A stretch of 58,582 nt of DNA, counting the filler, from Jimgerdemannia flammicorona (lineage: Eukaryota), in NCBI GenBank assembly GCA_003990765.1. It is 3 parts of 3 records of this genome, joined end to end, with 100 filler letters (N's around TTAATTAATTAA, not from the genome) between each part and the next. Parts side by side here need not be neighbours in the genome. Positions count along the whole stretch, not along the records: positions 39,127 to 58,582 come from RBNJ01001935.1; 2 more parts are not named here. One strand, written 5' to 3'. Positions within the stretch are counted from its first letter, which is position 1; each line of letters starts with the position of its first letter. This document shows, piece after piece, positions 7,621 through 58,472 of the stretch. The position numbers were made by a program, and so were the translations under genes. Under the pieces are notes generated by a model. It was not told the DNA's origin and did no database searches. It saw nothing but the letters and a program-made list of their open reading frames with translations.

Positions 7621-7624
7621 GGAA

Positions 7625-8490: not shown

Positions 8491-8509
8491 TCTGATAAAT
8501 CAAAGATCT

Positions 8510-9049: not shown

Positions 9050-10578
9050 TGTAGCGGTGACCCCAGAATGATGACATCAGTACAGGAGACAGTCTTTCTT
9101 TACAAGCCACCAGATCGGAGTATAAGAAGATCATACAGCGTATGAGATGAGCAATGATGACCAACTGTGAGTCATTGTGACCACAGCACAAACATTCTGA
9201 AGAATATAAAAGAAGGATTAAGGAACTACAGTAGTAGCAACCAATAAGAACCACCAATCCCAAAATAGCTCAAAGACTTATCACAAACAAAATGCCTGCT
9301 GCCTGCCAAACCTCAAGGTCAAGGAATTATCAAGGTATCTCGGTCGAGAAAAGGATGTTCCAAGACATCAGAAGAGCCATGAGGACCCACTCAAGAAGGA
9401 CTCCTAGTGTCAACCTGGGTACTGCAGACCCTTATCACTTTATCCTCTACTGCCGTGAAATGGAAACAAGGATCACCATTGCCACCGAATGCCTCTAAAT
9501 GTGGCAGAAATACGAAATAGGAAACCTCCTCTATTGGGAGTTCCCACAGGCCAGCCCTCAAGAGCTACAAGATGCCACTCCTATGGACTTACGTGAGGTA
9601 AGGACAGCAAAGAAGATTCATCAGATCTTCAGGCATGCACCATGGTCGATTCTCAACTTGGAGTATGTTAGAGTCTCAGACTTCAGAGACCTGTCATCCC
9701 ACCGTATCAATGCACTAGAAGCCAGGGTAGCTACAGAAGCCCAGTCCACTATCACCCTCAACAGCGAAGAAGTAGAAGACTTCTGGCACCTTATCCTTTA
9801 GGACAACCCAGACCAATTCCCACAAGGATTAATCTCAGTATTCCAAGGCCCAAGTATCTGGGTTAGATCTCCCCAAGACCCCACATTTGTCCCCTATTTT
9901 GTGGAAGAGAACCTCATAGACTGGAGAGCTCCAGACCTTGTTCCCGATTTTCCTGTCACCCCCGAACGTGATGACATCATCGATGACATCATCCCGTGCA
10001 ACATTGAAACACGCGAAAATGATGAAGTATGCGAGACACGCGACCTACATGATGAATTTGCAGACCTCATCTCCTTCAGTAATGATGATGATAATGATGA
10101 TGAAGCTCCCATGATCCTAAACTTTCTGCTCTAAAAGTTCTTTGTTATACTGGATAATGCCAGCACCAGTATTCTTATGTAACACTGAATAATGCCAGCA
10201 CTGGTATTCTGAGGTGATGCGAAATTGTTCTAGCACTGGTATTTTGATGTGGTACTAAATAATGCCAGCCCTAAAACTTAGTAGTTTTAGTTATTGGAAT
10301 TTATATTTAGCTTTATATCTTAACAACTATTGAATTATATTTTGTATAAATACCTCTCTTATTTTCTCTGAAATAAAGTCAGTTCTACTCAGTGCAATAT
10401 ACACACTTCCTTGCAAGCAATCTAAGAGATAACAAGACAGTTAAAGATAAGAAGTTTGAGGACTATAAGATCTTGGGAAGGCACTCCAATAAGAACTTGC
10501 TTATAACAACTTGAGTTAGTCTAAGAGATATACCTTGAAGAGAATCTGGCATATTTGAAGGACTCAGCGACCACTACA
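9050..10578 (+). mobile_element. ~1.53-kb LTR (probably solo) of an LTR retrotransposon, copy 1
   Basis: TGTAG...CTACA inverted termini mark exactly where similarity to 15174-17160 starts and stops; TATAAA at 10345 and AATAAA at 10372 give a U3-R-U5 layout. No clean TSD. Confidence 0.8.
9292..10134 (+). pseudogene. LTR-encoded ~280-codon protein of unknown function with acidic C-terminus
   Basis: ORFs 9292-9498, 9499-9801 and 9901-10134 share one frame, broken by two point stops; the second stop is GAG in copy 2. Confidence 0.8.
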
Positions 10579-11030
10579 TGACACTATATTGCTAAAGCCA
10601 GAACTAAGCTCAAGAATCTCTAATTCTATAATGATAAAAAAGAAGACCTAGAAGTATTTGTAACAAAATTAAAAATCCTCCTAAATAATATATAAATAGA
10701 ATATAGTTAATGAAAACAGACTATAAATAGAACCAGAGTAGCATACTTCTTTAATGCTATCTCTAGATAATTATTAGAGATGATTCAAAAGTAAGAATAA
10801 TCCTACAACTATCTATATAAGTAATGATATCTGGAATAAGCTGTTATCAGAATATATACTATTTTAATAACTTAAAGACTAAGAGACAATAGAAATAACA
10901 ACAAAGGAGACAAGCAATATCAATTTAAAAAAATCTTCAAAATTATAAGAAAGATTCAAGAAATTATCTAATAAGGAAATAGAAGAACTTATAAAGAAAG
11001 AAGTATTAGATTATATAATAAATTCTCAAT
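10579..11030 (+). mobile_element. Heavily decayed gag-like remnant
   Basis: Residual reading KLKNL*FYNDKKEDLEVFVTKLKILL resembles a retrotransposon gag; very AT-rich. Confidence 0.3.
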
Positions 11031-11039
11031 ATAATCTTT

Positions 11040-15000: not shown

Positions 15001-15427
15001 AGAGTAGAGCTATTATATAATATATTAGTATAGATAGATTTGGTAATAAATATACATAGAAGTCTAAATAACTATAAATATATATATATTTTTCTACTAT
15101 AAAAAGAGAGAACATATATCTCATAAATAATTTAATAAAAAGATCAATATGAATAAAGAACTATCCTCTTTACTATAACAGTAACCTCAGAATAATGATA
15201 TCAGTATAGAAGACAGTCTTTTCTTATAAGCCACCAGATCAGAGTATAAGAAGATCATATAGTATGACTCATCTGGACTATAAGATAAGCAATGATGACC
15301 AACTATGAGTCATTGTAACCACAAGATAGATATCTTGAGGAATATAAAAGAAGAATCAAGAAACCATAGTAGTAGCAATCCAAAAAAAAGCTCATAGAAA
15401 TAGTTCTAAAGACTTACTACAAATAAA

Positions 15428-16258
15428 ATATCTGCTACTTATCAAACCTCAAGATCCAGAAACCACCAAGGCCTCTCAGTCTAGGAAAGAATATTCTAAG
15501 ACATCAGAAGAGCTATGAGGACCCATACAAGAAGGACTCCTAGTATCAATCTAGATACTGGTGACCCCTATCATTATATCCTCTACTGTTACAAAATGGA
15601 AACAAGGATCACTATTGCTACTGAATACCTTTAGATGTAGTAGAAGTATGAAATAGGAAACCTCCTCTTCTGGAAATTCCCTCAGACCAGTCACCAGGAA
15701 ATACAAGATATCACTCCTATAGATGTATATGAAATAAGGATAGCCAAGAAGATTTATCAGATTTTCAGACATATACTATGGTCAATCCCCAACTTAGAGT
15801 ATACTAGGATCTCAGACTTCAAGAAACTGTTAGCCCATCATACCAATATACTAGAGACCATGGTGACCACAGAAGCCCAGTCTACTATCACTCTCAATAG
15901 TAATGAGGTAGAAGAGTTCTGGAATCCCATTCTTGAGGATAATCTTGATCAATTTCTGCAACAATTGATCTCAGCATTTCAAGGCCCCAGCATTTGGGTT
16001 AGACCTCCCCAAGACCTCACATTTATCTCTTATTTTGTGGAAGAGAATGTCATAGATTGGAGAGCCCCAGATCTCCTTGTTCTCTTCACTACTGAATGTG
16101 ATAATATTATCAGCAATAATGTTATCTCATGTGATATATGCAAAATAGACAAAATGTTCACAAACCTTATCTTCTTTGAAGACATCCTGTCTCCAACCTC
16201 TGATCTTGATAATAGTGATGAAGATGAAGCCTCCATAGTCCTGAACTTTCTGCTCTAA
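15428..16258 (+). pseudogene. Second copy of the LTR-encoded ORF (ATG mutated to ATA)
   Basis: ORF 15860-16258 (TEAQSTITLNSNEVEEFW...VEENVIDWRAPDL...VLNFLL) matches the C-terminal half of 9292-10134. Confidence 0.8.
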
Positions 16259-16342
16259 GTTCTTAGTAATACTAGATTCTACCAGTATTCTGATCTTGTA
16301 TAACTCAGAAATTCTTCTGGTATTCTTTTTCTATACTACTGA

Positions 16343-16766
16343 TAGTGCTCCCAAATGAGTCAAATCAATTCGAATCAAATCAAATTGAGGGTTAAATGAG
16401 TTGAATCGAATTGGGGATTTTTCAATTCGAATCAATTCAAATTGAATCAAAAGTTGAATCGAATTGAGGGTCTGATTCGAACCCTAATTTTCAAAATGCA
16501 ATAACTCAGCGTAAACTCATCCAAATCTAACGTACTTTAGCTTGTTAGAATCACATTAATATGGTGAATCCAACAAGCTAAAATATATTAAATTTGGATG
16601 AGATTTTGTCGAGTTATTACATTTTGAAAATTAAGGTTCGAATCGAACTTTGAATCGAATTGGACCTTTGATTCAATTCAAATCGAATCGAATTGGACCC
16701 TTGATTCGATTGAATCGAATCGAGTTTGGGCCAAATTCAATTCAATTCAATTCGTTGGGAGCACTA
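16343..16766. mobile_element. hAT-type MITE with subterminal TCGAA repeats and a central palindrome
   Basis: TIR TAGTGCTCCCAA...TTGGGAGCACTA; flanks ctactga/ccactga; absent from LTR copy 1. Confidence 0.88.
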
Positions 16767-17729
16767 CCACTGAAATTCTACTGGCATCTTGAATTTGTAC
16801 AACTATTTGTACAGATACTTGAACTTGTACTTATGTATAACTGTAGTTTTCTGTATTCCAGTATTTTATTTGGTTATTAGAATTTATATTTAGCTTTATA
16901 ACTTAGCAACTATTGAATTATATTTTGTATAAATACCCCTCTTATTTTCTTTGAAATAAAGTCAATCAAGTTCACTTACTCTCAATTCCATGCAAGCAAT
17001 TTAAGAGATAACAAGATAGTTTAAAGATAAGAAGTTTGAGGACTATAAGATCTTGAGAAGGCACTCTAATAAGAACTTGCTTATAACAAACTTATAGTTA
17101 GTCTAAGAGATACACCTTGGAGAGAATCTGACATATTTGAAGAACTTAGTAACTACTACATAATATTACATACTATTACTATAATAGGAGATAATCTTAA
17201 AAGAATCTCTGAAAAAATCAAGGTCAAGAGATTCTACATTGTTTAAAAATTCCAAATAAAGTATATAAATCTAATACTGGCTAAAACCTCTACTCAAGCA
17301 TAGAAATAACTATTAAACTGAATAAGCAAGTAACAATTAGTATAGGTGTTAGAATAGAAGTCTCCAAAGGAGCTTATATCTGTCTTATAGAAAGAAGCAG
17401 TCTGGCTAAGAAAGATAGACTCTATATAGCTAGAGAAGTTATAGATCAAGAATTCAAAGGTAAAATCAATATTCTGTTATATAATACTAGATAGAAGATA
17501 GTTGAAATTATATTTAAAAAATAAATTATCTAAGTCTTTTTTGAGATAATATATAATAACTTTAAAGTCAAAAAAACAAACAAACTATTACTTTCCAATA
17601 GAGGAGAAAAAGCTTTTGGATTAATAGAAAAACACTCTGATAAGACCAAAGAGAAGACTAGAATATAAAATATTATTTATATTGAAGAATCTCAAGACCA
17701 AGACTAGAAATAATACCAGTACATTACTG

Positions 17730-18015: not shown

Positions 18016-18049
18016 TAGTGCATCGCAACCCAAGCCGACCTGTATACAT

Positions 18050-18285: not shown

Positions 18286-18459
18286 GACCTATATTTAACC
18301 CATCTTTAATCCACCTTTAAGCTATAAGGTACAAAAAAAAATATATTGCACATCTAAGATATATATTTAGAATAAACAAACAGAAACATAATTAGGAATC
18401 AGAAATCAAAATGAAATCGGAAATAAATAGGAAGTAAATTAGGAACATAAAGAACTTAC

Positions 18460-29514: not shown

Positions 29515-30282
29515 GCCCACGCATGGGACACGTTTCGTGGCTTCCATGACATAATCCCGCTGACGGCGCAATCTTTTTTATCCTGTGCCCGCATGAAGGA
29601 CGAATTATTATTATCTGTATGATGAATCTCTTGTATGCGCGGACGTGAGGGACCTCCTTTCACGTTACCTCTCATATGAATCCAAAGATAGGTTGTTATT
29701 CATGAATATTGGAATAAACCCAGAAAACCCAATCGTGGTCGCAAGGTGCAAGCAAGTGTATTCGTACTCATTGAAGAAATTTCGCCGCAAACCACATCAT
29801 TTTATTACATTTACGTAATTTCATTGTTTGTCTCCTGCATTCCATCGTCTGCACACTGCTGCACCGGGAGGGTTGGGAGGTTGAACAGGGGAAAAAGGAA
29901 GGCCAGAATAGAACCATATCATTCATGCTCTCTCGCAGAAGACACTTGTCGAATCTGTCGGAGGGAGAAATACACCTCCTTTCGGGCACCCGTTGGGGAA
30001 GAGAGAAAAGTTTGTAATGTTCATAGCAACAAATATACCCCCTTTCAACTCACGCCCTCCCCACGTCCTCCATCCAACTAACGAAACATATTCTTCTCTC
30101 CCTTTTTCCAAGATAAGTCGCGTATATACAACCCACCGTCTATACAATGCTTACCGAGTCATCCGACGGCGAATACTTTAGCTTGATGCAATGACAGGCC
30201 AGATGTTTTTTTTCTTTTTCTTTTTTTGGGTAGTGTGCCAATGTCGTACATAATTCACATTGAAGGGTACTCACTTTTCTAT

Positions 30283-35390: not shown

Positions 35391-36713
35391 ATGGATCATC
35401 AGTTTAAAGATCTTTGCGAGCTCATTATAAATGCTTGCAAACTTTCAAATGACCTCCCGCCACCTCCTCCACCACCCGTTGCACATACACTACGAACGCT
35501 CCTCACATCACGTCAGCCGTACCTCACCTCCTTGACACTGGCAACTAAATGGACCCCCCCACTTCATTACTCAGTCGCCTCCCATCTGTCCATCATCGCA
35601 GGACACCCTTTCCGGATACAAATCATACAGATCGCATTCTTCGGATATACCTTGAGCGCCTTGGTGCCCTGCATCTTGCGGGCTTCCTGGTTTGGTTCCC
35701 GTATGACCAGTTTACAGACGTGACTTGTATAAGCAAGGATGGAACTCACGAAAAGGTGTATAGGGGGACGATCGCGTCTGAGGGGGACTCAAACAGGCAA
35801 GAAGCACCAAAATGGACACTGAGGTATGAATCCTGCGTTTATGAATTACGATGATGATGTTGATTTGGCAAGATTTATTATATATTAACCAAATGTCAAA
35901 TAGTTGGTGCTGAACGTCTGCCTGACCACCTATGGCGATAGCCCTACTGTTCCCCTCGTCGGCCTCTCTCAGCATCCAGAAGACACCCATGGCTATTTGA
36001 TGGTCTTCGACTACGCTCAGTATGGCACGCTTGAAGAAACCCGTCTACAGGATCCCTACGACTGGTACCGTGTTGCGCAGATTTCCTCACGCCTTGCCCG
36101 ACGACTAGCCGACCTCCACAAATTTGGCTACGCCCATCATGACCTACACCCAGGTAACATCATGTACGTGGCAATAGATGAACCACGCTTAATCGATCTC
36201 GCCCTTGCCACCCCCATGGAAGATACCATCACCCAAACCAGCAACTGTGGCTGTGAAAAATACCTTTCACCCGAGTTCTTCTCCGAAAGCAAACAGACCT
36301 CAGCGTCGGACATCTACAGCTTCGCCACACTACTCTGGCAGTTAGTCACTGGTGTCCCACCAAGAGGGGACTCGTCCAACGCCCCGAATGGCCGACGCGA
36401 GCGCATGATCCCCGGTTCACCGCGTGAATTCAAGGAGGTTCTCAGAGATTGCTGGTCCCTGAATCCTCTCCTACGACCAAGCATGGAGCAAGTCTACGAG
36501 CGGTTATCGGGCTGGCATGATTCGTACAGGAGCGCAGCCGTCCCGTTCTCCCCGCAAACGACGGAGTTCATCGAGAAACTTCGGGCGGGCCGAGATCGGC
36601 GTTTCTGGAACGTGAGGAGTACGCTCACTCTCGCACCGTTCTTTGTCCATCTCGGTATACGAGTTCCAAAAATTATCAAGTCACTGCCGATTGGGACTCG
36701 TTCAACTTCATGA
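35391..36713 (+). CDS. Protein kinase-like gene (TKL-like type expanded in Mucoromycota); possibly pseudokinase or pseudogene
   Basis: WFPYDQF..ISKDG..VYRG; YLMVFDYAQYGTL; HHDLHPGNI; IDLALA; YLSPE; SDIYSFATLLWQLVTG; CWSLNPLLRPS. Intron ~35824-35903; apparent frameshift near 35555. Confidence 0.85.
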
Positions 36714-42100: not shown

Positions 42101-44987
42101 AAGGTGCCAATATCCAGGTCCATCTCCACTCCCCCCAAACTGCCCCTGCCCCAACAGTCTCTAGTGATCAGACTATGGGCACCACTCCACCTCCAATGAC
42201 TTCCAAACATCAGCACCCCAACATTCGGCTGTAAGTATCCCATCAATCCTTATACCTAAGCCATTCACCCAATGTGAATAGACCCTGGTATTACCCCACC
42301 ATGTTCTGCCCATATCCCCTAAGGAGCTAAGATTCTCCACCTCCTCCCATGTCTCCATACCACACTCCTCCCACCTGCATTTCTCTCTCCATCAGTTCTA
42401 TCCAGGTGCAGATCCTGAACCATATTAAAATTACCACCCAGAACATCAACTCCTTTCTCCAAGAGAATACCCTCCTCCAACAGCTCCTTGATCCATATAA
42501 TCCTCTCGCCCCTAACTGCAGGGCAGTAACAGGAGCCAATCCTCACCAATTCCCACCCTGGCTGATTCCAATCTCCCCACACCAAGAAATCACCCCAGCT
42601 CCTGATTCCCCCCAGTTCTCCTCTACCCTTCTTTATCAGAATTGCCACTTTGCCAAACCAAGTAGTAGCCCCACCCCATTCTCTAGTCCACTCCACCCAA
42701 TCATCCTCATCCTCACACCATATATCCAGCAGTAAAAAGAAATCAGCCTCCAATCTCTTGAGCCAAGTAAAAATGTTCTTATGCTACCCAGATCCCCTCA
42801 CCCCATTTACATTCAAAGAGAAAATGTTGGTTGTACTGTTCATAAGAAATAATGTTATATATTGCTTACATCCTCTACAAATCCACCTTCAACTCCTTCT
42901 ATACCAAGTCCAAGTCAGATTCTGCAGCTAGTTCTTTCTCCTTAGCTTCCTGTGCCTCCAGTCCTCCCAGTAGTTCAGCCATCGCCCCATCCTCTCTCTC
43001 CTCAAAATCCTCACAATACTCCAGACAGGTCTCCTGCCAGAGCTGCAAACCATGATGCTCAGCCCAACAGTAGGCAGCCCACTCACTAGTAATAACTACC
43101 AGCTCCTCCTCTCTCACCTTATCAATCTCATATCTCTCCTCCTCTATGAAAACTGCAAGAATCTCCACCTTCAGTGCCTCCATCACCCCATCACTATACA
43201 GAATCCACACCCAATGCTCCTCAGGCATCACATGCAGGTCCACTTCTCCCAACTCCTCAGCTGTGAGGTTATCCATCACCTTACTCATCCATAGCAGGTT
43301 TCTCACCTCCTTCCCTCCCAGAGTCCCTGGCTGCCCTGCATCCAACATTGTGGTATCAGCTCCTACACTGGCAGCCTCATCCCACTCCTCCTCTGGGATA
43401 TCCACCAGCTTGTACTTGCCAACTGCCACCACCTAACCCCCTTTCACGACATTGGGGACCCCAAAGTGTACTTGATGGACCCCCTTCATCAGTACATCCA
43501 CTGTTGTCCCTCTCTTCACAACTGGGCCCCTTCTGATAAGTAGGGGGGGGGGGGGTGGCATCCAAATCCTGCTCCCAGACTTCAAATGTACCATCTATAT
43601 AGGGGTCCTTGCTTGGTACCTTCCCAGCTCCTACCTTGTCTGCCTCCACCTCTCCTTCTTCTTTACTAGTCCAGACACTGGCTTCGACACCCCCAGACTC
43701 CTCAGCCCCATCCACCTTCTTATTTACCCCTCCATTTATACTCGCCAACAGCTCCCTCTGCCTCCTATGCCCCTGGGCCCACTCCCACTGCCCCTTGTCA
43801 GTATGAATATGCTTCCCATCAACAATCCAGATGCATCGACTCCTCAAACACTCTCCAGGCCTTTGCCCTCCTCTCAACTATACCACTCAACTCCTCCAGA
43901 GCCTCCAACAAGTCCTCTTCCTCCTCTTCACTCCCTCTCATCCTTGACACCCTACAGACAAAAGCCCCCCACATCAGCACCAAGGGCCAGTCGCTTGTCT
44001 TCCCTGTGGCCTCTCTTTCTGCCAGTCCAATCCTCATATCCATGTCTCCCATCCTAATGGAGGTTCCCTCCCACACCTGGAAACTAATATCCACCACATC
44101 ACCATACTCTGCCATCACCTCCTCCACCATCCTTCTAGTCTCCTCCTTCATCACTGTAGGCACCCCCTTCACCAGCAGCTGCACTATCCTGGGGTGCCAC
44201 CTCAGGCAGCACATCATGGAGACCACAACCTTCCCAACTACCACTCCAGTCTTCAGAGCCTCTTCCAGCAGGCCTGCCTCCTCAAAGCCCACCTCAACCC
44301 ACTCTAGACCCTTCAGGAACTTCACTGATACAGCCCCAGCCACCTGCTTCAAGATAAGCCCCAAGACCATCCTTGTCATCACTGCTAAGTCTTAGAAGCA
44401 CAGTGTCACTGCAAACTCCAAGATCGATTTCCTGAGTAATGGTGCAACCACTAGCCCCATTACACCATTGGTCAGATCCCCCTTCTGCATCAGGAACCCC
44501 TGCCCCACTCTGCCATCAGCCATTACATCTCTTTTTTTTTCCTGATTCCCTATTACACTTCTATTAGTAGTCCTATCCCCAGCCATAGCACCTCCAGCAC
44601 CTATGCTTGTACCCCCCACCTGAGTACCTCCCCCACTCCCTAGGCTTACCTTGCCCTTCTCTACAGCAGCACCAGCCCAAGATCCAGCTGGCCATCCACT
44701 CTCCTTCACCTTATCCATGAAGCTTGGGGGGCCAGTTCTTCTCCCATGGCTACCAGATACTGATCCACCTTCAGAGCCCTCACTACCTTTCAACCCTCCA
44801 AAGGCCCCCATCCCCAGGCCATAACCCCTCAACACATTCTGCCAGCCAAAAGCCCCAGGTCCACCTGACCCAGCATGCCCATCAGAACTCTTGCTCAATA
44901 ATATGTTTATAATATCTTTCCTTCAAGTTGTGTTGAAAAACTATTGTCTGAAGTTGGTGTAATGTGAATTATACTGAAGAAAGGTGC
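39127..44987 (-). mobile_element. Near full-length (~5.9 kb) degenerate L1/Tx1-like LINE; ORF1 ~44898-42860, ORF2 ~42843-39190
   Basis: MNSTTNIFSLNVNG endonuclease start, LGGNFN, RT motifs LDMDQK, QQGFVGGRLI, RGVPQGDLLSP and FADD; poly(A) at the contig start. Confidence 0.94.
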
Positions 44988-45400: not shown

Positions 45401-45556
45401 AATTCAAAACTTATATGCAATACAGCTTACAATAATACATATATACACAATCAAGTATATCACAGTCAAATATATCTGATATGTCTTCTATAATACTACT
45501 TATAGTAAATACTATGACAATAGCTTCAGGGTTAGATAAAGCTTCAATAAGTATAG

Positions 45557-46608
45557 TGTAATATGCCCAGCCCAATAGAGGCAAATTACAAGGTTGGGGG
45601 TTGATGTAGTTTGGCTTGAGCCCCCAGTTACTTTGTTAAAAGTAATAAAATATTCTTGGTATTTAGTGGTATAATAGTCAAAGCTAGATATCTGTGAGCA
45701 TTTCCTTATTGAGATGAGTTCTCTGGGTATAGTGACAATTTATATATATGTAGTGGACTGATAATTTAGCAGTTTTTCTTCTTGAGTGATAAATGATCTC
45801 TGTGTAGTGTGATAATCTCCAATGCAATTTCTGACTGATGGTCTTGTTTCCAAAAGTAGGCAATTTCTGGTGTAATCTTTGTATAGTGTGATGATCTTAG
45901 CAGTATTCTGTATTTGGCAGGGAACTTGATTTGATATAGATTCTCCTGAAGTGGACTTACTGGAAATAGAGAATAGCATGGATTCTTCCTAAATTGGCTC
46001 ACTGAGAATTGTACTGGTAACAGATTCTTCTTACTAGAAATGGGTGAATAACTTAGATAATTTGGATAACTCAGCTGTCATGAATTCTTCCTGAATCAGC
46101 AGGCTCTTTGGGAATAATATTTAGGTGGTGTGGATAACTCAATAACTTGGGTTCTTGGCAAGTTATATCAAAGACTAGCTTGTGGCAAGGTTTCTTAAGA
46201 GCTCTTTGAGAATGCAGATAACTTGGAAATGGTAGCTTATTTCTTAAGTAGTGGATTACTTAAATAGCAGTGAACCAAAAATATAACAGACTCTTCTTTA
46301 TATCAGAAAGTGGACCAGATTGGAAAGTAAGCTCACAATCTCCTAGCAGTAACTGTAGAGTTCCTCTTGAAGTATAGTAGACAGACTTGTCTTTTGCTTT
46401 GAATTTCAGACTAAGGATTATTCATTCTTATCTCTAGGGTATTTTATATATTGTGGTTGCTATCTGGTTACTATGTTGCTAATTATAGATTACCATCTAT
46501 GGTAGATGTGCTGGTTTAGCACAGGTGTGCTGGTTCAGCACAGGTGTGCTAGTTCAGCACAAATGTATAGATTCAGTACAGATATATCTTATCTGATAGT
46601 CTGGCTAT
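45557..46608 (-). repeat. Part of the 3' LTR of the older Gypsy copy (remainder at 56555-56667)
   Basis: Starts tgtaatatgcc; similar to the LTRs at 46609 and 55334; interrupted at ggctat. Confidence 0.85.
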
Positions 46609-47799
46609 TGTAACATGTCTGACTCAATAGAGGCATTACAAGATTGGGGGTTGAGGTAGTTTGGCTTGAGCCCCCAGTTACTTTGTCAAAAAGTAACAAA
46701 ATGTTTGAAGATTTCTGAGATCCTTAGTGTTTAGTGGTATAATAATCAAAGCTAGATATCTGTGAGTGAGTTGTATGATTGGGATGGTTCTCTGGGTGTA
46801 GTGGCAATTTGGGTGTAAATGGATTTCCTTCTTAGGTCAATTGAGAATTGGTAGAATTTATATGTAGTGTGATGGGTTCCTTATTCAGGTCAACTGGGAA
46901 TGCCATGATTTATGTAGTATGACGATCTCTGTATAGCACAACGATCTCCAAAAGTATGCAATTTCTGGTGAATGCCTTGATTTGGCTTACTGGGAATAAT
47001 GAATAACTTGGCAGCAGATAATTTGGATAACTTGGATGTCACAGGTTTGGTTTCAACTGGGAATACTACTTGGATGGCATGGGTTCTCTGGAAATGTGGA
47101 TAACTTGAAAATAGCAGATAATGCAGATTTTCTAGAATCAGTGGGATTCTGGAAAATAACTCAGATAGTGTGGATTTATCTGAATCAGCAGCTTCTACTG
47201 GGAATACAACTGGCATGGATCCTTCCTGAATCAGTGGCTTTAACTGAGAGATGGCAGTGAAGTTCTTCCTTGAACTTGGGCAGCAAATCTTCAGGCTTAT
47301 CTGGTAAGTAAACCAAAAACAGACTCATTCTTTGTATTGGAAAGTGGACCAGAGTGGAAAAGTAGAGAACAAAGCTCACAACTTCTTGGCAGTGGCTCAT
47401 TGGCAGGCATATCTCCTAAGTATTGCAATTCTTTCTGGATTAAGTGGCTTTTGGCATGTGTTTCTCCTAAGTATACCAGACAATTGACTTTCCTTTGGTT
47501 TGTGTTCAACTTTTGGACTGAGGTTTATTCACTCTTGTCTCTGGGATAATTTATATATTATGGTTACTATGTGGTTACTATATGGCTAATTATAGGTTTG
47601 CTATTTGTGGCAGGTATACAGAGTCTGTATGGTGTATAGGACCTGTATAGTATACAGAGTCTGTACAGGTAAACAGACCCTTTATGGTATGTCTGGCTAA
47701 TTATACAGTTTCCACAGCAATGATTACTGGTTACTATGCTGTGTGTTCACATTATCTTGGCTAAGGTATAATTCAGGTAGTACATCTTGGTTTGTTATA
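46609..47799 (-). repeat. 3' LTR (~1.19 kb)
   Basis: Direct repeat of 55334-56554; preceded on the minus strand by a PPT-like gtgggggctga. Confidence 0.92.
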
Positions 47800-47849
47800 T
47801 CAGCCCCCACTGAAGGATAGCCTGTCTCAGACTGTTTTTTAGTCATCAT

Positions 47850-48300
47850 TTCAATAAGCATAGGCTGCTTCTTCATTTATACCTATTCCATCATCTTCAT
47901 CATCTGTACTAGGGTCACTCCATTCTATGGGCTCTTCTTCTTCTTCAGGGAATAGGATTTTGACAGCATTGATGAGACTCAAATAGGTAGTAGAGTTCAT
48001 TCCTTAAATGTTATTCAGAGAAAACTATACCTGTTTCAGAGCTGTGACATTTTGTTTGTAAATGGTGTATAGTCTGTCTGCAGCAGTAGTGTCTCTTCTG
48101 GTCAGACCAGTGGTGTTTCTGATATAGGTCTGCTCTGGGGCTAGAAGGTTCTGCAATTGTTTACCAATTGCATAATAGGCCTGCAGTTGGTAGATTTGTA
48201 GTAGGCACCTGGCTAGGGTAAGATTTTTTTTGGTGAACTTGGACCCTCTGAAGGGGGCTTCCATTAGCTTGGCTGATTTGGGTTAGAGGGACTGGTAGGA
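47850..48300 (-). pseudogene. Accessory ORF between integrase and 3' LTR, unknown function, acidic tail
   Basis: NLTLARCLLQIYQLQAYYAIGKQL..TTGLTRRDTTAADRLYTIY..MNSTTYLSLINAVKILFPEEEEEPIEW..DDEDD; conserved at 56740-57130. Confidence 0.75.
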
Positions 48301-48351
48301 CTTGGAAGGAGCTGAGGACCAATATCTGGTGGTGCTGATCAATCCTTTGGC

Positions 48352-49400
48352 TTATGGTGTGGAGGAAAGATATAGTTTGAGATAATTAATATATACTGGT
48401 GTTCTCAGAGTTTGTCTGTCCATGCTTCTTAAATAGATGCTAGTTCCTCTAATGTTGTGTACAAAATAGGGTCCTTCTCATTTGGGTTCCAATTTGGCAG
48501 CAAAATTTATTTCAATCATACTTCTCTAAACTAATACTTGATCTCCAATCTTGATCTCCTGATCCTTCTGTTTCTGGTCATAATACCTCTTTTGTCTTTC
48601 CTGGGCTTTGAAAATCTGATCTTGGGCTTGATTACATAACTGTTCTGTCTTCTTGAGGAGATCTCCAAGATTCTCATGGTCAGGAGTTCTGGTTTTCTTG
48701 ACAAACATCATTTCAAATGACTTTTATTTGGTGGAGGCAACAGGGGTATTCCAAATTTCCCATAGGATCTCAGGTATACAGAGGTCCCAATTGGTAGGAT
48801 TGACTTGGACAAGTTCTTTTTTGATAGTCTGGTTCATTCTTTCTGTCATGCCATTAGTCTGAGGATAATATGATGTAGTCTATTTGAGATGGATCTTGTG
48901 AATTCAGGCATAACTTATAATTATATTGTTGATGAATTCTGTGCCTCAGTCAGAGATAAGTTCTTCTGGGGATCTATATCTGAGTATAAGTTCATGAAGA
49001 AGGCCTACAATGATTAGGGTATCTGCAATTTCCATTGGGAAGGCCTTGGGCCACTTTGTCAGATGTTTCACAATAATAAGGATGTATTTGTTTCTTCTTG
49101 GTATAACTGATAGAGGCCCAATTACATCTATTCCCCATCTCTTAAAGATGTTGTCTGGTGGTACAATTGGTTGCAGTGGTGCTTGATAGTTCTTCCTTCC
49201 TTAGTACTTCTGGTTGGTGTCATATTTCTTAACTATATCCCAGACTTTTGTTCTAAGGTTGGGCCAATGTTAGTATATTGTTCACAGCTTTTCTTCTACA
49301 TTTGCCTATCCTTGGTGGGCTTTCTGATATTCTTTTCAGATGAGATCTTCTTGTGCATTGATGGTCTGTGGAGTCTCTTTTTGGGTGTAGTTCCTCAGGA
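48352..49400 (-). pseudogene. Gypsy integrase
   Basis: WGIDVIGPL, KYILIIVKHLTKWPKAFP, QKRYYD, IGDQVLV, KLEPK*EGPY. Confidence 0.9.
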
Positions 49401-49415
49401 CACCCTTTTTCTAGT

Positions 49416-50700
49416 TTATTGGGTTTGGTGGGAAAGTACATCAACATTGTTGTGGACTTTTTCAGCTTTGTGGATGATGGTGATTTTGTAATCCTGAAGG
49501 ATAAGGATCCAGCAGGCTAGGATTCCAGTGGGTTCCTTGCAGTTGAATAGCCATTTGAGAGCTGCATGGTCTGTGATCAGGGTGAACCTTTTTCCAATGA
49601 GATAATGTTTGAACAGAGTGACTGTCCATATGACTGTAAGGTATTCCAGTTTGGTTCTACCATAGTTCATCTGCTGCTGATTGGTAGCTCTGCTTGCATA
49701 AGCTATCACATAGTATTGTTGATCAGGTCCTTCTTGGGCTAGAACTGCTCCAAGGCCATCTTTAGAAGCATCTGTATACAAGATGAATGGCTTCTATAGA
49801 TTTGGGTGCATAAGGATTGGTGCTGTAGTCATACAGTTCTTGAGTTCTTTGAAGGCTTTTTCTTGTGATTCTGTCCATTTGAATGGCACTTCTTTCTTGA
49901 GAAGGATCTAGATTGGGACAGAAATTTGAGCAAATTCCTAATAAACCTTCTGTAGTAGGACACTAATATCTGAAATGATAGTGTTTCCTATGGAGTCTTG
50001 GGTATTGGCCAGTTGCTGATCTTCTTGATTTTCTTTGAGTCTATATGGGTTCCTTTTTTCGAAACTATGAATTCAAGGAATTCAAGTTTCAGTTTCCCAA
50101 AGTAGCATTTCTTTGCATTCAATCTTAAGTAGTTCTTGTGGGTGAGCTTGAAGAATTTCTCTAGGTAGTACAGGTGTTCTTCAAAATTTACTAAATAGAT
50201 GTTAGAATTGTCCATGTATACAATCAGATAGTGGTGGATTAAGAGAGTATAGACTGAATTCATCATCCTCTGAAAGGTGGGAGGTATATTGCAAAGTTCA
50301 AAGGGCATTCAGAGGTACTTGAACAGTTTCCCTAGAGCAAGAAAGGCTGTCTTCTGAATGTCCTTGAGGTCCATGGGGATCTCATGAAATCCTGTGAAGA
50401 GGTCTATACTGCTGAAGTATCTGGCATCTTGTAACTGATCCAAAAGGTCATTGATTCTGGGCAAAGGATAGGCATCCTTTTCAGTGACTGAATTGAGTTT
50501 TCTGTAATCTACACAGAGTCTCCATCCTCTCTTCTTTGGTACAATAAGTATAGGGCTGGCCCAGGGGCTAGTAGAGTGTCAGATGACTTCATTGTCGAAG
50601 AGTTCTTGAATGTGCTCCTTTTTGAATGTTTTTAAGTGATGGGGTTTTCTATAGGATTTCTGTCAGATGGGTGTTGCATTCCCTATATTTTAGCTGTGGT
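49416..50700 (-). pseudogene. Gypsy reverse transcriptase and RNase H
   Basis: SPWASP, RLCVDYRKLN, YPLPRI, MPFEL, YMDN (decayed YMDD), YTDAS, VIAYASR, TDHAALKWL. Confidence 0.95.
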
Positions 50701-51231
50701 GGTATGATGAATTGTATGGTAGGTTGCCATAATCAGTGGTGAAGATATCTTGATATTTGTTTAGAAGTTCTACTAGTTGTTGCTGTTGTTGAGATGTCAA
50801 TTCTTCTCCAATATTGGTGGAAGGCTTCACTGTTTCCTGGTCGCAGAGGGGCCTTTCCTTTCTTCTGGGACCTTTTGCCATTTCCTGATAGGTTTAGTTC
50901 ATAAACTTCCCTATGAGTTTAGTTAAGGAAAGGTACCAGGTGTTCTATGATGGTTCCTTTTGGAAAAATGATGGTTTCCCAGTTTTGGTTGGTTGCTTGG
51001 GAGTGTACTGGATTCATCTTGTCAGGGAATGTGTGTCCCTCTATGTCCAGGTGGGAGTTGTCTTCTTTGGGTTCAAAGAAAAGATTTCTGGGGTCAGGTT
51101 GTGCAAAGATTTCGAAGGTTGCTTGTTCTCCAGACTCCAGGATAAGATTCTTATACAGTCTGACTGATTGCCAGTATACTTGCTGGGGAATGTTCTTTTT
51201 GAGGTAGTTGACTTAAAGGAGATGTACTTTC

Positions 51232-51651
51232 TTTCTGTCTGAACTTCGAAATCCTTTGGCTTGTCTTGTTCCTTCAATTAGTTCAGAGACTTCTTCCAAT
51301 TGTAGAGTTTTGATCTTTATGAAGACTGCTTGGGCAATCTTCTGTCTTTTAATGATTCAGTGCCATTCTGTACTGCTATTGTGTAGAATAATCTTGATCT
51401 TGCCTATATATCCTGGGTCAATGGTTCCTCCTTCTACAGTTATCTCTTGTCTGGCAAGTCTGGACCTTAAGATCAGTTGGATGTAAGATCCTTGGTGTGG
51501 CTGTATGGCTAATCTGGTTCTGATTATGAAGGTTTTTCCAGGCTTGATAGATTCATCCTCCAGGCTGTGAATTTTATATCCTATATCCTCTGGGTGGGCT
51601 TTGGTTGGGGGTTTGGCCTTAGGGTGCAGCAGGGCATACTGGGCAATATCC
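51232..51651 (-). pseudogene. dUTPase domain in the Gypsy polyprotein
   Basis: Hand translation shows all five trimeric dUTPase motifs in order: AHPEDIGYKI, RSRLA, GGTIDPGYIGKIKIILHN, KIAQAVF, RQAKGFRSSD; one internal TGA. Confidence 0.92.
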
Positions 51652-52929
51652 TTGCTGTGTTCGGGCTTTCCTAAGGCTGAGGCTCTACTAGTGGAGAGCC
51701 TCTAAGCTCTAAGATTGAGGTGTGGCCATCTGGCTCCAGTAGAGGGGTCTCGAAGATAGTTGATTTCTCTTCTTCCTGTAGGGTCTAGGGCTTCCATGAA
51801 GTTGGTGGCATCTTCTGCCCATCCTTGGTGAGTTGCATGTCTGATGAGAGCCAGGATGTCTTTGCCTAAATCATAGATCTTGAGGGTCCTTCTTCCTGGC
51901 TTTTTGGTCTGGCTTTTTTGGATCTGACTTCAGTTATCTCCTCTCTTCAAGGTATGGACTGCAATATTATAACTGAGATGGATCTTCCAATGCCTGTAGT
52001 CTCGGCAGTCTGGGTGTCTTCTATGGTTGCAATATCTCATTGCTCAGAAATGATATTTCTGATTATTGATCTCTTGTTGTCTTGGTAAACAGTACCCATC
52101 TTGGTCATAGGTGAGTGGAAGAGTAGATAAGGGATATATTTCTATCTGGGTGAAGATGTCTTGTCCCCTGAATCAACTTTGCAACTTAGTGATGATGTTT
52201 TGAAAGGTGGTTAACTGTACAAGTGTATTCAGGTGTTCTGGTCTCTGGGGCCTCTGTTTCTCCTGATGGTCTAGTAAATGGCACTGATAGCAGTAGTCTC
52301 AGAGAGAGTGGAAGACCATTTGGTATGGACATCTTCCTAGCTGAAAAGCTTTTTCTTGGTGAGTTTCCTTCTTAAGGATAATAGTGATTATACTGGGTCC
52401 TTCTTCTGTATTCCAAGGATCATTGTCTTTAGGTGGCGTTCAGTGAGGATCATCCAAGGAGATGAGTTTGGGGACCTCTTCTTCTTCAGGTGCTTCTTGT
52501 TCAGGAACTTCTTGGTCAGAAGTTTCTTCTTTCTTAGATGATTCTTGACCCCAAATTGCTTGTACTTCTGCAGCTTTAGTCGCAGGTGTTTCTGGAACAT
52601 ATCTGCATTTCTTCTTCTTTCTGCATTCTGGGCAGGCTGTGCTAGGTGATTTCCTTGTTCCCATGATCTTGGAGGAATGCTCAGGATACTTGTATCTCTT
52701 GAGGCAGGTAGGGCATCCTTTAGCTTCTCCTGCAATAGCCCCAATTGTGATAGAGATAGTGTTCTTGGCCCACACATTATCTTCCGGTCTATTATCCACC
52801 AGATTAATTTGGGGATTGAGTCTGGGATCATTGTCATCTTCAGATTCTTCTTCTTCTATAGTAGACTCCTCACTGCTGGCATATTCTTCCTAAATAGTGA
52901 CCTTCTTCTTCTTCTTTGATTGCTCATAG

Positions 52930-53290
52930 CTGATCACCTTAACTCTATACTTCTTGCCTCGGTAGTCAAACTTGAGTACTTGTTGGCCAATATCAACAAC
53001 TGCATTCATTTCCTTCATCCAGTTGGTGCCAAAAATTATGTCATAGGTGACAGCTTCAGAAACAACTGCTTTAGGGATGGAGAACTGAATGTGTCCAAGA
53101 GAGATAGTGATATTTTGTACTTCTCCAAGGGGTTGAGTTCAGGCTCCATCTGCTACTATGATGCTGAGGTTGGATGGTCCATCAATGGGCCATTGGAGGG
53201 TGTCCAGGAACCATTTGGCAATGACACAGATAGCTGCTCCTGTGTCTATGAGGATCTTTACCTTTTGTCCTCCATTGTCTCTATGTAGGT
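52930..53290 (-). pseudogene. Retroviral-type aspartic protease
   Basis: KILIDTGAAICVI...YDIIFGTNWM. Confidence 0.9.
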
Positions 53291-53399
53291 AGATGCTGAC
53301 ATATCTTTCAGCTGCCTGGACAGAGATGGGAACTAGTTCTTGCTGTTGTATTGAGACTCAGCCAGTGCTAGACCTGGTAGTTCTCAGCAATTTGTTTCA

Positions 53400-55200
53400 G
53401 ACTTCAGCTTGTATCAGTTGCAGGAATTGCAGGAGGGGGACTTCCACTTGGCCTCTTGAATCTTCTGCCAGGCTTTATTGTAGATATCTCTAGGCATGGT
53501 CTTTGGGGTGGACTTTTTCTTGGGCTTTGGGGCAACAGGTTCCTGTTCTTCTTGTTCCATTTCTTCATTCTCTGATGGCAACTCGTTTGTCTCAGGGGCA
53601 AAAGGTGAGGGGGTTTGGGGAGGTATTTCAACTTGTTCTTCTTCATGTTCTTCATCTTCCTCTTGGATGATTCTTCTGCTAATATTCCTGGATGGTCTTC
53701 CTACAGGTCTCTTTCTCTTCTCTGCTAGATAGATTGTTTTTTGAGTGGTAACCTTGATAGAGTACAAGTCCAGGTTACTGTAGTCTTTACTATTACTTGC
53801 CTCCTCAAAATCTTCAACAGGATGAGCCTCAGTTTTTTTTGTACTAGGTGTCATTCCTTTGGTTTGATGATTCTGATTCCCTTCAATCACTTTTTCTATT
53901 ATCACATTCAGTGATATAGTGTCTGAATTGTCCACAGTGGAAGCATTGGACTTGGGCTCTGTCTTAGTCAAGGTATCTTCTTTCTTCTTACTGGAAATTC
54001 CTGTTATCTCCTGGTAGATAACCTTGGCTCCTTTGTGGTGGGTATCCTCTGTTGTCTTAGTAGCCCTGATTTTCATGTATGGTGAGTTTTTCAATCTGTC
54101 CAACCAGCTGGCTAACTTGGAGCTGAGGTCTTGGATTTTACATCTATCCTTCTTTCCTTCCTTAGCTGGCCTTCTTTCTTTGGATCTTTCTTGTCCTTGG
54201 AGAAGTCCTTATAGGGCTTTGACCAGGATGTCTTCTTTATCTTCTTTCTTGTCATGATCACTCCAAGTAGTTCCTTGTCTGATATCAAAGAATACTTGGG
54301 CTATATTTACTTATTCTTCAGACCTTCTGATGCCTAGGGTGTAGACATGCTTGGCAATGTTTGGGGGAATTCCATTCATGAAGGTCATTGGGTCCATAAT
54401 GTCCTGGTTGGTAGCATTGAACCCAGCAGCATGCATTCTCTTCTGGATTCTTGTGAAGAAGGCTCCAGGTGATTCTCTAAGATTCATCTTCATTCCCATG
54501 ATGGATTCTTGGGACTTGTGGTAGGTTTCATTTCCTGCATACTTTTTGATGAGCCAGTGGACCATGGCCTCATATTCTAGCTCATAAGACATTGCTGCTT
54601 GTATCTGTCTTGCCAGTTCTGAATCTGGGTTGTTTGCTATTTAGTGGAAAATTTCTTAGGCTGGTTCCCTGAGCTGTGTCTTGTAGATGGCAATTTTTTT
54701 TTCATCTGGAAGATTCCTCAAGGCTGTGATTTCTTCAATTCCATCAAGTAATTCTCTGGGGTCTTCCTCCAAGTATCCTGCCAAGATTGGCAATAAGGTG
54801 GCCATTTCATTGTTACTTTCTTCTGATTCTAATTCACTTTCTGAACTATCACTGGAAATGTGGGTGCTTGGGTATCTTGAGGATGGTGTTCTGGACCTTG
54901 GATGAAGTGAAATAAGCCTAAGTATTCTTGTAGGAGCTGCTTCCAATTCTGTAAGGGGTTGTGATAAAGGTTCTATTAGTGAGATTGGTGGGACTGATAT
55001 AGGGCATCTGGCTGTAAGGTCTTAGGTTTATGTGATAACATCTTCTAGTTCTTGTGCAAGTTCTTTGAAATTTCTAGCAGGGCTGTCTATATTGTCTGGT
55101 TGATCTGGTTTGGGGTTTCGGGCTATAATGCCTTCTGGTTGGAAACCTTTTGATACTGGGTAGTTGGCAAGTCTTGATGTGATTACTTCTCTTCCTGTCC
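53400..55200 (-). pseudogene. gag with CCHC zinc knuckle
   Basis: GYLEEDPRELL, RESPGAFFTRI, FMNGIPP; CFHCGQFRHYITEC at ~53950-53905. Start approximate. Confidence 0.8.
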
Positions 55201-55313
55201 AGATGCTAGTGATAACTGGTTCTCCTGTAGTAGCAGAGGTTGGTGTTATATCAAATATATCCAGTTTGACTGTAGGTTCTTGTGAGCTAAAAAGTCATGT
55301 CAATTTTGAAATC

Positions 55314-55333: not shown

Positions 55334-56554
55334 TGTAACATACCTGGCTCAATGGAGGCAAATTACAAGGTTGGAGGTTGAGGTAGTTTGGCTTGAGCCC
55401 CCAGTTACTTTGTCAAAAAGCACAAAATATTCTAAGATTCCTGAGGTCCTTGATGTTTAGTAGTATAATAATCAAAGCTGGATATCTGTGAGCAAGTTGT
55501 ATATCAATTTCCTAATTGAGACAGTTCTCTGAGTATAGTGGCGATTTCGGTATGAATAGATTTCCTTCTTAGGTCAATGGGGAATTGGTAGAATTTGTAT
55601 ATAGCATGATGGATTCCTTATTTGGGTCAACTGGGAATGCCACAATTTGGGTAGCATGATGATCTCTATATAGTGTGACAATCTCCAAAAGTATGTGATT
55701 TCTGGCAGATGCCTCAATTTGGCTCACTGGGAATAATAAATAACTTGATGGCAAGATAATTTGGAAAGCTCAGATGTTGCAGGTTTGGTTTCAACCAGGA
55801 ATGCTACTCAGATGGCATGGGTTCTCTGGGAATATAGATAACTTGAAAACAGTGGATGATATGGATTCTCCAGAATTGCAGGCTTCTGGGAATAACTCAG
55901 GTGGTGCTGATTCATCTGAATCAGTGGCTTCAACTGGGAATACTACTGGTGCAGATCCTTCCGGAATCAGTGGCTTTAACTGGAAGACAGTGGTGAAGTT
56001 CTTCCCTGAACTTGGGCAGCAAATCTTCAGGCTTATCTGGTAAGCAAACTAAAAATGGTCTCATTCTTTGTATCAGAAAGTGGATCAGAGTGGAAAAGAA
56101 GAGAACCAAGCTCACAACTTCTTAGCAGTGGCTCATTAGCAGGTATATCTCCTAAGTATTGCAATCCTTCCTGGATCAAGTGGCTTTTGGCAGACATTTC
56201 TCCTAAGTGTACCAGACAATTGACTTTTGCTTTGGTTTGTATTCAACTTTCAGACTAAAGTTTATTCACTCTTGTCTCTGGGGTAATTTATACATTATAG
56301 TTGCTATCTGGTTACTATGTGGCTAACTATAGGTTTGCTATTTGTTGCAGGTATACAGAGTCTATATAATATACAGGACCTGTATAATATACAGAGACTA
56401 TACAGTATACATAGTCTGTATAGGTAAACAGACTCTTTATAGTATGTCTGGCTAATTATACAGTTTCTGCAGTAATTGTTACTGGTTACTATGCTGTGTG
56501 TTCACATTATCTTGGCTAAGGTATAATTCTGGTAGTATGTCTTGGTTTGTTACA
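55334..56554 (-). repeat. 5' LTR (~1.22 kb)
   Basis: tgtaacata...tttgttaca; direct repeat of 46609-47799. Confidence 0.92.
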
Positions 56555-58472
56555 CTATTTATACAGTTTCCCACAGCAATAGTTACTATATCTGGTTACT
56601 ATACTATGTGTTTATGTCATCTAACTAAGTTATAATTCAGGTGATACATATGTTTTGATTTGTCACATCAACCTCTACTAAAGGATGCTCTGTCCTTAGA
56701 CTGTCCTTTAGTCATCATCTTGGTATAGATAAGTATCTTCTGCATTAATATCTGTTCTATCATCTTCATCATCTGTACCATAGTTACTCCATTCCAGAGG
56801 TTCTTCTTCTTCTTCTAGGAACAGGATTTCAATAGCATTAATAATGCTCAAGTAGGTGGCTAGGTTCATTTCTCATATATAATACTGGGAGAATTATACT
56901 TGTATCAAGACTATAGAGTTTCATTTATAAAGAGTATAGTGCCTGTCTGCAGCAGTGATATCTCTCCTTGATAGTCCTGTAGTATTTCTGATATATATTT
57001 GTTCTAGAGCTAGAAGGTTTGGCAATTGTTCTCCAATTATATAATGGGCCTGAAGTTGATGAACCTGCAGCAATCATCTAGCCAGAATAAGATTCTCTTG
57101 ATGAATCTTAATTTTCTGAAGGGTATTCTCATTAACTTCTCAGAATTGGGGTAGGAGAACTAGTAGTGATTGAAATGAGCTAAGGACAAGAGTCTGAAGA
57201 CAGTTGTTAACTCTCTGATTTATGATATAGGGGAAGATATATCTTGAGATGATTGATGTGTACTGGTGTCCTCAGGGTTCATCTATCTATACTTCTTAAA
57301 TAGATGCTGGTTTCTCTGATGTTGTATATAAGATAGGATTCTTCCCACTTGGGCTACAGTTTGGTGGCAAAATTTGTCTCAATTATGCTTCTACAGACTA
57401 GTACTTGATCTCCAATCTTGACCTCCTGATTATTCTATTTCTGGTCATAGTACTACTTTTGACTTTCTTGGGCTTTGGTAATCTGAACTCAGGCCTGATT
57501 ATGTAATAGTTCTGCCTTCTTGAGGAGGTCTCTAAGATTCTCATAATCAGTAGTTCTGGTTTTCTTAGCAAACATTATTTCAAATGACTTCTGTTTGATA
57601 GAGACAGTAGGGGTGTTCCAAATTTTCCATAGAATCACAAATAAGCAGAGGTCCCAGTTGGTAGGATTGACTCAAGCAAGGCAAGTCCTTTCTTGATGGT
57701 CTGGTTCATTCTTTCTCATACCATTGGTCTAGGGATAGTATGATGTAGTCCATTTGAGGTAGATCTTAAGAACTCAGGTATAACTTATGATTATGTTGCT
57801 GATAAATTCTGTGCCTTAGTCAGAGATGAGTTCTTCTGGGAGTCCATATCTGAGTGTGAGTCTATGAAAAAGGCCTACAATGGTTAGGACATCTGTAATT
57901 TCCATTGGGAAAGCCTCAGGCCACTTGGTCAGATATTCTACAAATATAAGAATATACTTATTTCTACTTGGTATAACTGGTAGAGGTCCAATTACATCTA
58001 CTCCCCATCTCTGAAGGATGTTGTCTGGTGGTATAATTGATTGTAGAAGTGCTTGGTAATTCTTCCTTCCTCAGTACTTCTGGCAGACATCACATTTCCT
58101 AAGTATATCCTAGACTTGAGTTCTAAGGTTGGGCCAATGTTCATATATTGTTCACAACTTTTCTTCTATATTTGCCTGTCCTTAGTTGTTCTTTTCAGAT
58201 AAGATCTTCTTGTGCCTTAATGGTCTGAGGAGCTTCTTTTAGAGTATCATTCCTCAGAACACCCTTCTTCTGGTTCATTGGGGCTGGTGGAAAAGTATAT
58301 CAACATTGTTGTGAGCTTTCTCTACTTTGTAGATGATGGTGATTTTGTAATCCTGGAGAATAAGAATCCAGCAGGCTAGGATTCTGGTAGGTTTCTTACA
58401 GTTGAATAGTCATTTGAGAGCTGTATTGTCTGTGATCAGAGTGAACCTTTTTTTAATAAGATAATGCTTGAA
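56555..58472 (-). mobile_element. Older Gypsy copy of the same family: rest of LTR (to 56667), accessory ORF, integrase, RNase H end
   Basis: Colinear with 47700-49620. Confidence 0.92.

Follow-up and report, generated by a model that had tools for sequence, protein, structure and literature searches.

The window, that is the whole 58,582-nucleotide stretch of Jimgerdemannia flammicorona DNA analysed here, is made of contigs joined by runs of N. The part derived from RBNJ01001935.1 holds the flagged stretch and, from about 46609 to the window end, two tandem copies of a Ty3/Gypsy element on the minus strand, which we call family A. As the sequence-only reading had noticed, both copies keep an extra reading frame after integrase, hereafter the accessory ORF. 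On contig C1933 (contig 1, positions 1–19463), a second Gypsy family, B, is present as two solo LTRs with an accessory ORF inside each. The features of both families are collected in Table 1, and sister loci were sought in the genome (231 Mb, 35,354 contigs).

Table 1. Gypsy-type features of families A and B in the window
Feature	Position	Strand	Remarks
Solo LTR, family B	9050..10583	+	1,534 bp, TG...CA, 4-bp target duplication CTAT
Accessory ORF, family B	9292..10134	+	280 codons, 2 internal stops, wholly within the LTR
TATA box and AATAAA of the B LTR	10345..10377	+	3' of the ORF, which would lie in U3
Second, older solo LTR, family B	~15174..17165	+	target duplication TTAC
Decayed accessory ORF in the second B solo LTR	~15425-16258	+	
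3' LTR of family A copy 1	46609..47799	-	~1.19 kb, non-coding; TATA...AATAAA module ~245 nt in
Polypurine tract, copy 1	47800..47811	-	~30 nt past the accessory stop; conserved throughout the A subfamilies shown
Accessory ORF, family A copy 1	47839..48355	-	start codon mutated, one-base frameshift, 3 internal stops
Overlap of pol stop and accessory start site	48352..48355	-	ATGA in most genomic copies
Decayed gag-pol, family A copy 1	48352..55300	-	by translation and Pfam on sister copies; without chromodomain
LTR common to the tandem elements	55334..56667	-	3' LTR of copy 2 = 5' LTR of copy 1; then putative PBS
Accessory ORF, family A copy 2	56708..57223	-	single frame, start codon mutated, 5 stops

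Translation of family A gives gag, CCHC, protease, a Cys/His-rich extra segment, dUTPase, RT, RNase H and integrase, in this order. Pfam recognised zf-CCHC, aspartyl protease, dUTPase, RVT_1 and RT_RNaseH on the open frames of two sister copies (L068 and L070), and the integrase was assigned by motif, not by Pfam scan. The Ty3/Gypsy features are present: TG...CA LTRs, PBS, polypurine tract, target duplication, and gag followed by the PR-RT-RH-INT order. Membership of the chromoviruses was rejected, the integrase C-terminus having no chromodomain and the accessory ORF no chromodomain match. In all four families of the present study (A, B, C and E, the last two described below), pol ends some 45–65 codons past the start of the KLEPKWEGP motif.

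The long pol segment between protease and dUTPase bears Cys/His clusters in family A (~51700–53000, minus strand; L068:5067–5729), for which Pfam gave no match in the part scanned, and a shorter motif rich in Cys stands here in family B. The tandem copies form an LTR-internal-LTR-internal arrangement around their common LTR, yet the internal parts are just ~78% alike. A third LTR, related to family A and more decayed, lies just past the 3' LTR (45554–46500).

Elsewhere in the window, two 5.75-kb copies (4–5754 and 39238–44985), 80% alike and strongly C-rich on the plus strand, are probably a non-LTR retroelement on the minus strand; the G-rich stretches at 11000–15000 and 20000–24000 resemble these elements reversed. 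A palindromic, GAATC/GAATT-rich, MITE-like element occurs at 6489–6813, at 8517–8625 and at 16340–16790, the last as an insertion in the second B solo LTR. A tandem duplicate (25378–27421 and 28215–30190, 86%) holds an intron-containing gene with a Rossmann GxGxxG start, which we take to resemble F420-dependent NADP reductases and whose first copy looks frameshifted. A protein kinase frame (35904–36713, Pfam Pkinase E=3e-21) and about eight 33-bp tandem repeats (18014–18313) were also seen. The intron-bearing style of the host genes, this kinase among them, and the abundance of repeats would point to a fungus.

The accessory gene of family A

The accessory ORF was first put at about 150 codons; its presence was borne out and its size was not, copy 1 having about 172 codons and the family 171. 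In 30 sister loci it occupies another frame than pol and ends ~30 nt ahead of the polypurine tract. The frameshift of copy 1 sits in an A-run near 48230, and the family HMM matches this copy at 48355–48227 and 48255–47914. The motifs reported by eye were found: LQAYYAIGKQL at 48186 and IRNTTGL at 48123 and 56992 in family A (minus strand), and MWQKYEIGNLL at 9499, LQDATPMDLREV at 9565, KKIHQIF at 9610 and FRDLS at 9682 on contig 1 (plus strand). At one genomic locus (L107:3631–4850), two family A accessory ORFs stand in opposite orientation about 400 bp apart.

The decay of the copies follows a pattern that had been perceived from the window, with stops at CAA/CAG/CGA-like positions: of the 63 stops in 23 gap-free copies, 61 occupy columns that read Gln, Trp or Arg elsewhere. 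The CpG observed/expected ratio is 0.00 in old copies, against 0.34–0.51 in younger ones. Since all CpG is lost with age, the host would methylate these elements and their decay would be driven by methylation; the CpA index shows no depletion, which sets this decay apart from classic RIP.

The start of the gene is closely tied to the end of pol. The start site reads ATG in 50 of 54 distinct A-type loci. Of these 54 loci, 39 have a pol stop beginning 1 nt past the start site (37 of them as ATGA) and 13 have one 14 nt past it, the two others being outliers. A frame placed after integrase, where env and chromodomains lie, might be a C-terminal extension of integrase or an env remnant; such an origin is highly improbable, given another frame than pol, a conserved pol stop, an ATG of its own (also in 18 of 20 loci of family E), no membrane segment and no Pfam match. 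The match to a known integrase C-terminal domain that the sequence-only reading had considered is indeed absent.

Pairwise dN/dS ratios, from 40 sampled pairs per comparison, are 0.21 (A1-A1), 0.11 (A1-A1y) and 0.16 (A1-A2) in the accessory frame, against 0.53–2.3 in the other two frames. By the simpler pN/pS count, the controls gave 0.39 for integrase and 0.97–1.04 for the family A LTR; as the latter range holds in all six frames over bases +300 to +950, an ORF within the A LTR was rejected. Having its own frame and a dN/dS that is low relative to the other frames, the accessory ORF is a real gene under purifying selection.

Families B, C and E and the spread of the gene

The repeats of contig 1 were rejected as the two ends of one element, each having its own 4-bp target duplication. 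A 4-bp duplication was found at 2/2 solo B LTRs with both flanks, and in the second window copy. Across family B loci L031–L060, 4-bp target duplications come with frequent ATAT-like flanks, and family C flanks also often end in ATAT. A target duplication of 4 bp is unusual for fungal Gypsy elements.

Sister B LTRs adjoin either a polypurine tract and integrase on their 5' side or a primer site and gag-CCHC-protease-dUTPase on their 3' side. Because these neighbours are Gypsy-type gag-pol parts, family B is a Gypsy relative of A. The earlier view that the LTR protein of contig 1 comes from an unrelated family thus fails: B shares with A the gag-CCHC/PR/dUTPase/RT/INT layout and the integrase C-terminal motif. 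On sequence grounds, families A, B, C and E are one clade of dUTPase-bearing Gypsy elements.

In the B copies listed, the TATA...AATAAA module lies at about +1260 to +1400; it is 3' of the ORF in family C as well, and in the non-coding LTR of family A it is found ~250–300 nt in. The B ORF, being upstream of the TATA box, probably lies in U3. From the position of the module, the gene would therefore stand 5' of the presumed promoter, and just the place of the polypurine tract would differ. As a consequence of its position, an ORF inside the LTR is also duplicated with the LTRs and retained where just a solo LTR survives. In B and C the gene is found 540–570 nt past the pol stop and ~200–240 nt into the LTR; a linker ORF joining pol to the LTR-borne one was rejected, 12 B copies and 4 C copies showing no codon-position bias. 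The dN/dS ratio of the B ORF is 0.35 within the family and 0.21 against the window copies.

Family C was found through a divergent B-like metagenome protein. Its gene is also LTR-borne and has a dN/dS of 0.24 (C-C). In the 3' part of its LTR (L072–L090), a variable number of internal repeats of 120–175 bp stands between the ORF and the TATA box, and these repeats are possible binding-site candidates for a regulator of the element itself.

An integrase-motif search of the genome gave 1,460 matches, the first 30 of which, in contig order, were fetched. A member of the accessory family was present within 1.5 kb at 30/30 of these loci: 8 A, 6 B, 1 C and 15 E. The family E gene is post-pol, with 153 codons and no acidic tail; it has its own ATG in 18 of 20 loci, and the ATG lies 5–17 nt before the pol stop (+5, +8 or +17) in 19 of 20. 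A conserved ORF under selection, in sense orientation and 3' of pol, is thereby found in most copies, as in sense additional ORFs. A first look gave 1,491 A, 3,631 B, 4,647 C and 2,529 E candidates, which are not copy numbers.

Beyond this genome, relatives were encountered as metagenome-derived proteins only (7, 6, 9 and 19 matches in four protein searches). The 10 relative clusters looked up come from ENA or JGI sources only, and no relatives were found in viral contigs. Among the three metagenome loci fetched, L122 is a chance bacterial match. Related sequence was also present in three contig-only runs, a kind of data that cannot show transcription.

Relationship of the accessory proteins

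The structure predictions proposed earlier for A and B gave two helical models with the same six helices, at low confidence (mean pLDDT 59 for A and 54 for B). In AF2, these span residues 34–69, 72–82, 86–99, 104–108, 113–118 and 121–130 in family A, and 47–83, 89–95, 100–113, 117–122, 128–132 and 136–149 in family B; compared by these spans, the helices of the separately folded models are of like length with a constant offset of 13–17 residues. A short helix, a turn and a 14-residue helix with basic residues may form a helix-turn-helix-like part in the core, as this pattern suggests. A homodimer prediction for family E, made without an alignment, scored 0.19, a value that speaks neither for nor against a dimer.

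The cores have little net charge (A +3, B +1, C -1, E -5). The D/E-rich tails noticed by eye exist in A (last 40 residues net -13) and B (net -9) and do not extend to family E, which has none. Membrane segments, sought by 19-residue hydropathy in A, B, C and E, were not found (maximum KD19 0.16–1.02), and the predicted proteins are soluble.

No family of Pfam or PHROGs was matched to the accessory ORFs. The same holds for NCBIfam, where a tryptophan dioxygenase match on 3 of 14 rows stayed below the cut-off (17 bits for the first, against 391), and for PDB sequences, where the best score was E=0.69. The ESM Atlas returned a Closterovirus coat protein for family A (0.92, 147 shared features), rejected as noise of low recognition, and nothing for family B. 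In fold searches, the best Z was 6.0 over 52 residues of generic helices for A and 4.0 for B, with several winged-helix proteins at Z 2.6–3.4, below noise; a viral fold library gave nothing for A or B at E<=0.001, nor did Foldseek against PDB for B. A missing or weak fold match is not proof of a new fold.

By eye, the core presumably resembles DUF3102 (PF11300) and DUF1016_N (PF17761), which share with it a long helix ending in I-G-x-x-L and followed by a helix-turn-helix. With 27 DUF3102 and 22 DUF1016_N natural sequences, the joint profile met DUF3102 in the same register over 69 columns (E=0.083), at a score of 16.5 against shuffles of up to 16.6 and a reversed score of 17.1, and DUF1016_N gave E=0.22–0.4. 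DUF3102-labelled entries ranked 9 and 39 in two viral fold searches (E=0.52 and 0.73), and PF17761 had no match in this genome. With scores in the shuffle range, the link of either DUF to the accessory family is not supported.

Compared directly, the window A and B proteins align at 21% identity over 121 columns (BLASTP, E=17), and 174 of 500 shuffles reached their Smith-Waterman score. The register of the by-eye alignment is recovered by HHalign, HMMER and MAFFT alike; the significance of the pair is not. Early profile comparisons had HHalign probabilities of 1.6% and 13%. HHalign of A against B, the comparison advocated by the sequence-only reading, reaches E=1.1e-3 with a score of 26.3 against 17.8 for the best of 40 block shuffles, a favourable result that is not significant at database scale; at full length, the score is 28.5 against 25.1 for the best of 150 block shuffles. 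Taken as single comparisons, the A profile finds B members at E ~1e-5 (6 of 10 at <=5e-5), with reversed decoys at ~0 bits. When 2,340 window tiles were searched blind, the A profile matched B at E=0.39 and the B profile matched A at E=2.4, two reversed decoys scoring above each; the correct tiles were first among the non-self forward tiles, and the E profile ranked B and A tiles 1–4 (E=0.03–1.1).

Family E stands between the two. HHalign joins A with E (probability 70%, E=4e-5, 34.4 against 21.0 for the best of 40 block shuffles) and B with E (90%, E=1.7e-6, 79 columns, 42.4 against 32.7 with 40 block shuffles), both in the register first read by eye. A profile of A, B and C that predates the discovery of E gave 12–43 bits to the ORF in 15/15 E loci, and independent A-only and B-only profiles both reached at least 7 bits in 12 of 15. 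An A-type metagenome protein, P0008, matches the B copy L038 (BLASTP, E=7e-7) and has the B-type motif LREARTAK.

The A-type and B-type ORFs could also be real and unrelated, their likeness being a chance match of amphipathic helices. The window-against-window E-value, the early HHalign probabilities and the non-significant blind search agree with this, as does an extra 100-residue domain in B and C that is absent from A and E. We hold it quite unlikely: E matches A and B in one register, the A and B models share helix order and spacing, P0008 combines features of both types, and the genes occupy the same place in related elements at all 30 loci. Because family E bridges both and the element context is shared, homology of A and B is probable, the direct match alone being insufficient. 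The proteins of A, B, C and E, 10–25% identical between families, very probably share one six-helix core of ~100 residues. The proposal of one helical accessory family residing inside or outside the LTR is therefore upheld for placement (post-pol in A and E, in the LTR in B and C) and for helical content, and is probable as regards a single family.

The trees of the two genes differ in part. The integrase tree reads ((B,E),(A,C)) with support of 100/100, and the accessory ORF tree joins B with C (90/100); in an AU test on the ORF data, B+E was not rejected (p=0.15-0.16). B and C share the LTR position and the extra C-terminal domain. An exchange of LTR-borne modules between lineages is suggested, not shown, by these sequences; alternatively, A and E may have been shortened independently. 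A move of the polypurine tract from the 3' to the 5' side of the gene would convert the post-pol arrangement into the one in U3.

Expression, possible roles and known counterparts

The third gene would be the last cistron of the element RNA in this dUTPase-bearing, chromodomain-less Ty3/Gypsy clade. In A and E, out-of-frame stop and start codons overlap or lie close together. By analogy, it is reasonably probable that these two families rely on termination-reinitiation where pol ends, and that B and C depend on an internal promoter or on an RNA that is sub-genomic or spliced. Termination-reinitiation at AUGA or UAAUG overlaps is described for caliciviruses, the fungal viruses HvV190S and CHV1 and the non-LTR element SART1 in the available part of PMC10275272, which holds no LTR-retrotransposon example; like these cases, A and E have a stop and a start that share bases (AUGA) or are a few apart, ahead of the 3'-most cistron.

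As to function, we tentatively favour a soluble protein of the nucleus that regulates the element encoding it. Its helix-turn-helix-like part would bind the LTR or the chromatin there, and recruitment of transcription or anti-silencing factors would fall to the acidic tail in families that have one. The near-neutral core is weak for a DNA binder, family E lacks the tail, and the helix-turn-helix reading comes from the pattern of helices, the DUF3102 and DUF1016_N profiles not being significant. The Tas gene of foamy viruses also has a 3'-end location, and its product contains an acidic region for activation. The regulator would act like Tas or plant VANC and belong to neither family. As far as the available text goes, Arabidopsis VANC (PMC5735166) and CERV of Cer1 (PMC10309623) are element-encoded accessory proteins acting on their own element, and the accessory protein may be likened to Tas, VANC and CERV in this proposed function, with no sequence or fold match found and CERV likened by description only.

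It is fairly unlikely that the protein acts instead on the export, stability or translation of the element RNA, like CERV of the C. elegans Cer1 or retroviral Rev/Rem. The precedent lies in a Gypsy-type element, although CERV is made from a spliced mRNA (available part of PMC10309623). A small, soluble, helical protein suits this role, and if its translation is coupled to that of pol, it would emerge next to the RNA that encodes it. Against this role, a stretch rich in arginine for RNA binding is not apparent, and the core has a charge close to neutral.

In A and E, the link of the start codon to the pol stop would fix the ratio of the protein to Pol, as expected for an adaptor that is associated with the particle or with integrase and produced along with Pol, and that would, for example, steer integration in place of the missing chromodomain or bind a host protein through its acidic tail. 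The clade has no chromodomain, and family B insertions show 4-bp duplications and ATAT-like flanks. Such an adaptor is nonetheless unlikely: in B and C the gene is remote from the pol stop with no selected linker ORF, and the B integrase is sister to that of E while the B accessory protein is closest to that of C, a mismatch that argues against a tight partnership with integrase.

A general suppressor of host RNA silencing or DNA methylation, not specific to its own LTR, would fit with an arms race, given the fast divergence between families, and with elements that lose all CpG with age. This role is very unlikely, for selection within families is purifying and not diversifying, and no known suppressor family was matched in Pfam or PDB sequences.

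Descriptions of fungal Gypsy elements normally give them gag and pol alone, between LTRs that do not code. A survey of fungi reports gag and pol, mostly of chromoviruses, in its available part (PMC3248453). Sense additional ORFs between pol and the 3' LTR are known in plant elements (PMC7264820), LTR retrotransposons of rotifers have ORF3s (PMC5408684), and fungal Gypsy elements have been drawn with an 'add. ORF' of unknown function (PMC2864245), this last one being compared by description, not by sequence. From what is available of these sources, the accessory gene resembles known additional ORFs in being sense, at the 3' end, kept in all family copies and common to several lineages, and the rotifer and some of the fungal elements also have a dUTPase. 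It differs in lacking a membrane segment and any Pfam domain, GDSL/DEDDy included, in a start that would be coupled to the pol stop instead of a spliced message, and in its occurrence inside the LTR.

MMTV Sag is a membrane protein for the vertebrate immune system. The proteins of B and C are, unlike it, soluble by prediction, with no sequence or Pfam match, and belong to a retrotransposon whose sister families hold the gene outside the LTR. The likeness lies in position: in the available text on MMTV, the sag/naf ORF is in U3 of the LTR (PMC9412291), and as in B and C it is a full ORF within the LTR, 5' of the TATA box, in an element with dUTPase.

The sequence-only reading had seen here a candidate for an undescribed system. 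The protein family is nameless in the libraries searched, and no published description of it was found in the openly searchable literature; extra 3' ORFs and a U3 ORF are known kinds, and to this extent the claim was overstated.

Throughout the clade, a third gene is retained under selection of roughly the same strength as that on integrase, and this gene crosses the polypurine-tract boundary into the LTR. Its post-pol stop-start geometry is known from fungal RNA viruses and one LINE, LTR elements being absent from the available part of PMC10275272. By analogy, the clade might work like complex retroviruses, each member encoding an AUGA-reinitiated helical regulator whose gene moved into U3 and then travelled from lineage to lineage as an LTR module, a proposition that we consider doubtful. 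If true, LTR copies by the thousand, solo LTRs among them, could each bring along an activator or anti-silencing gene of their own. The accessory gene, with its predicted role, is a candidate for the expansion of retrotransposons in a methylating fungal genome.
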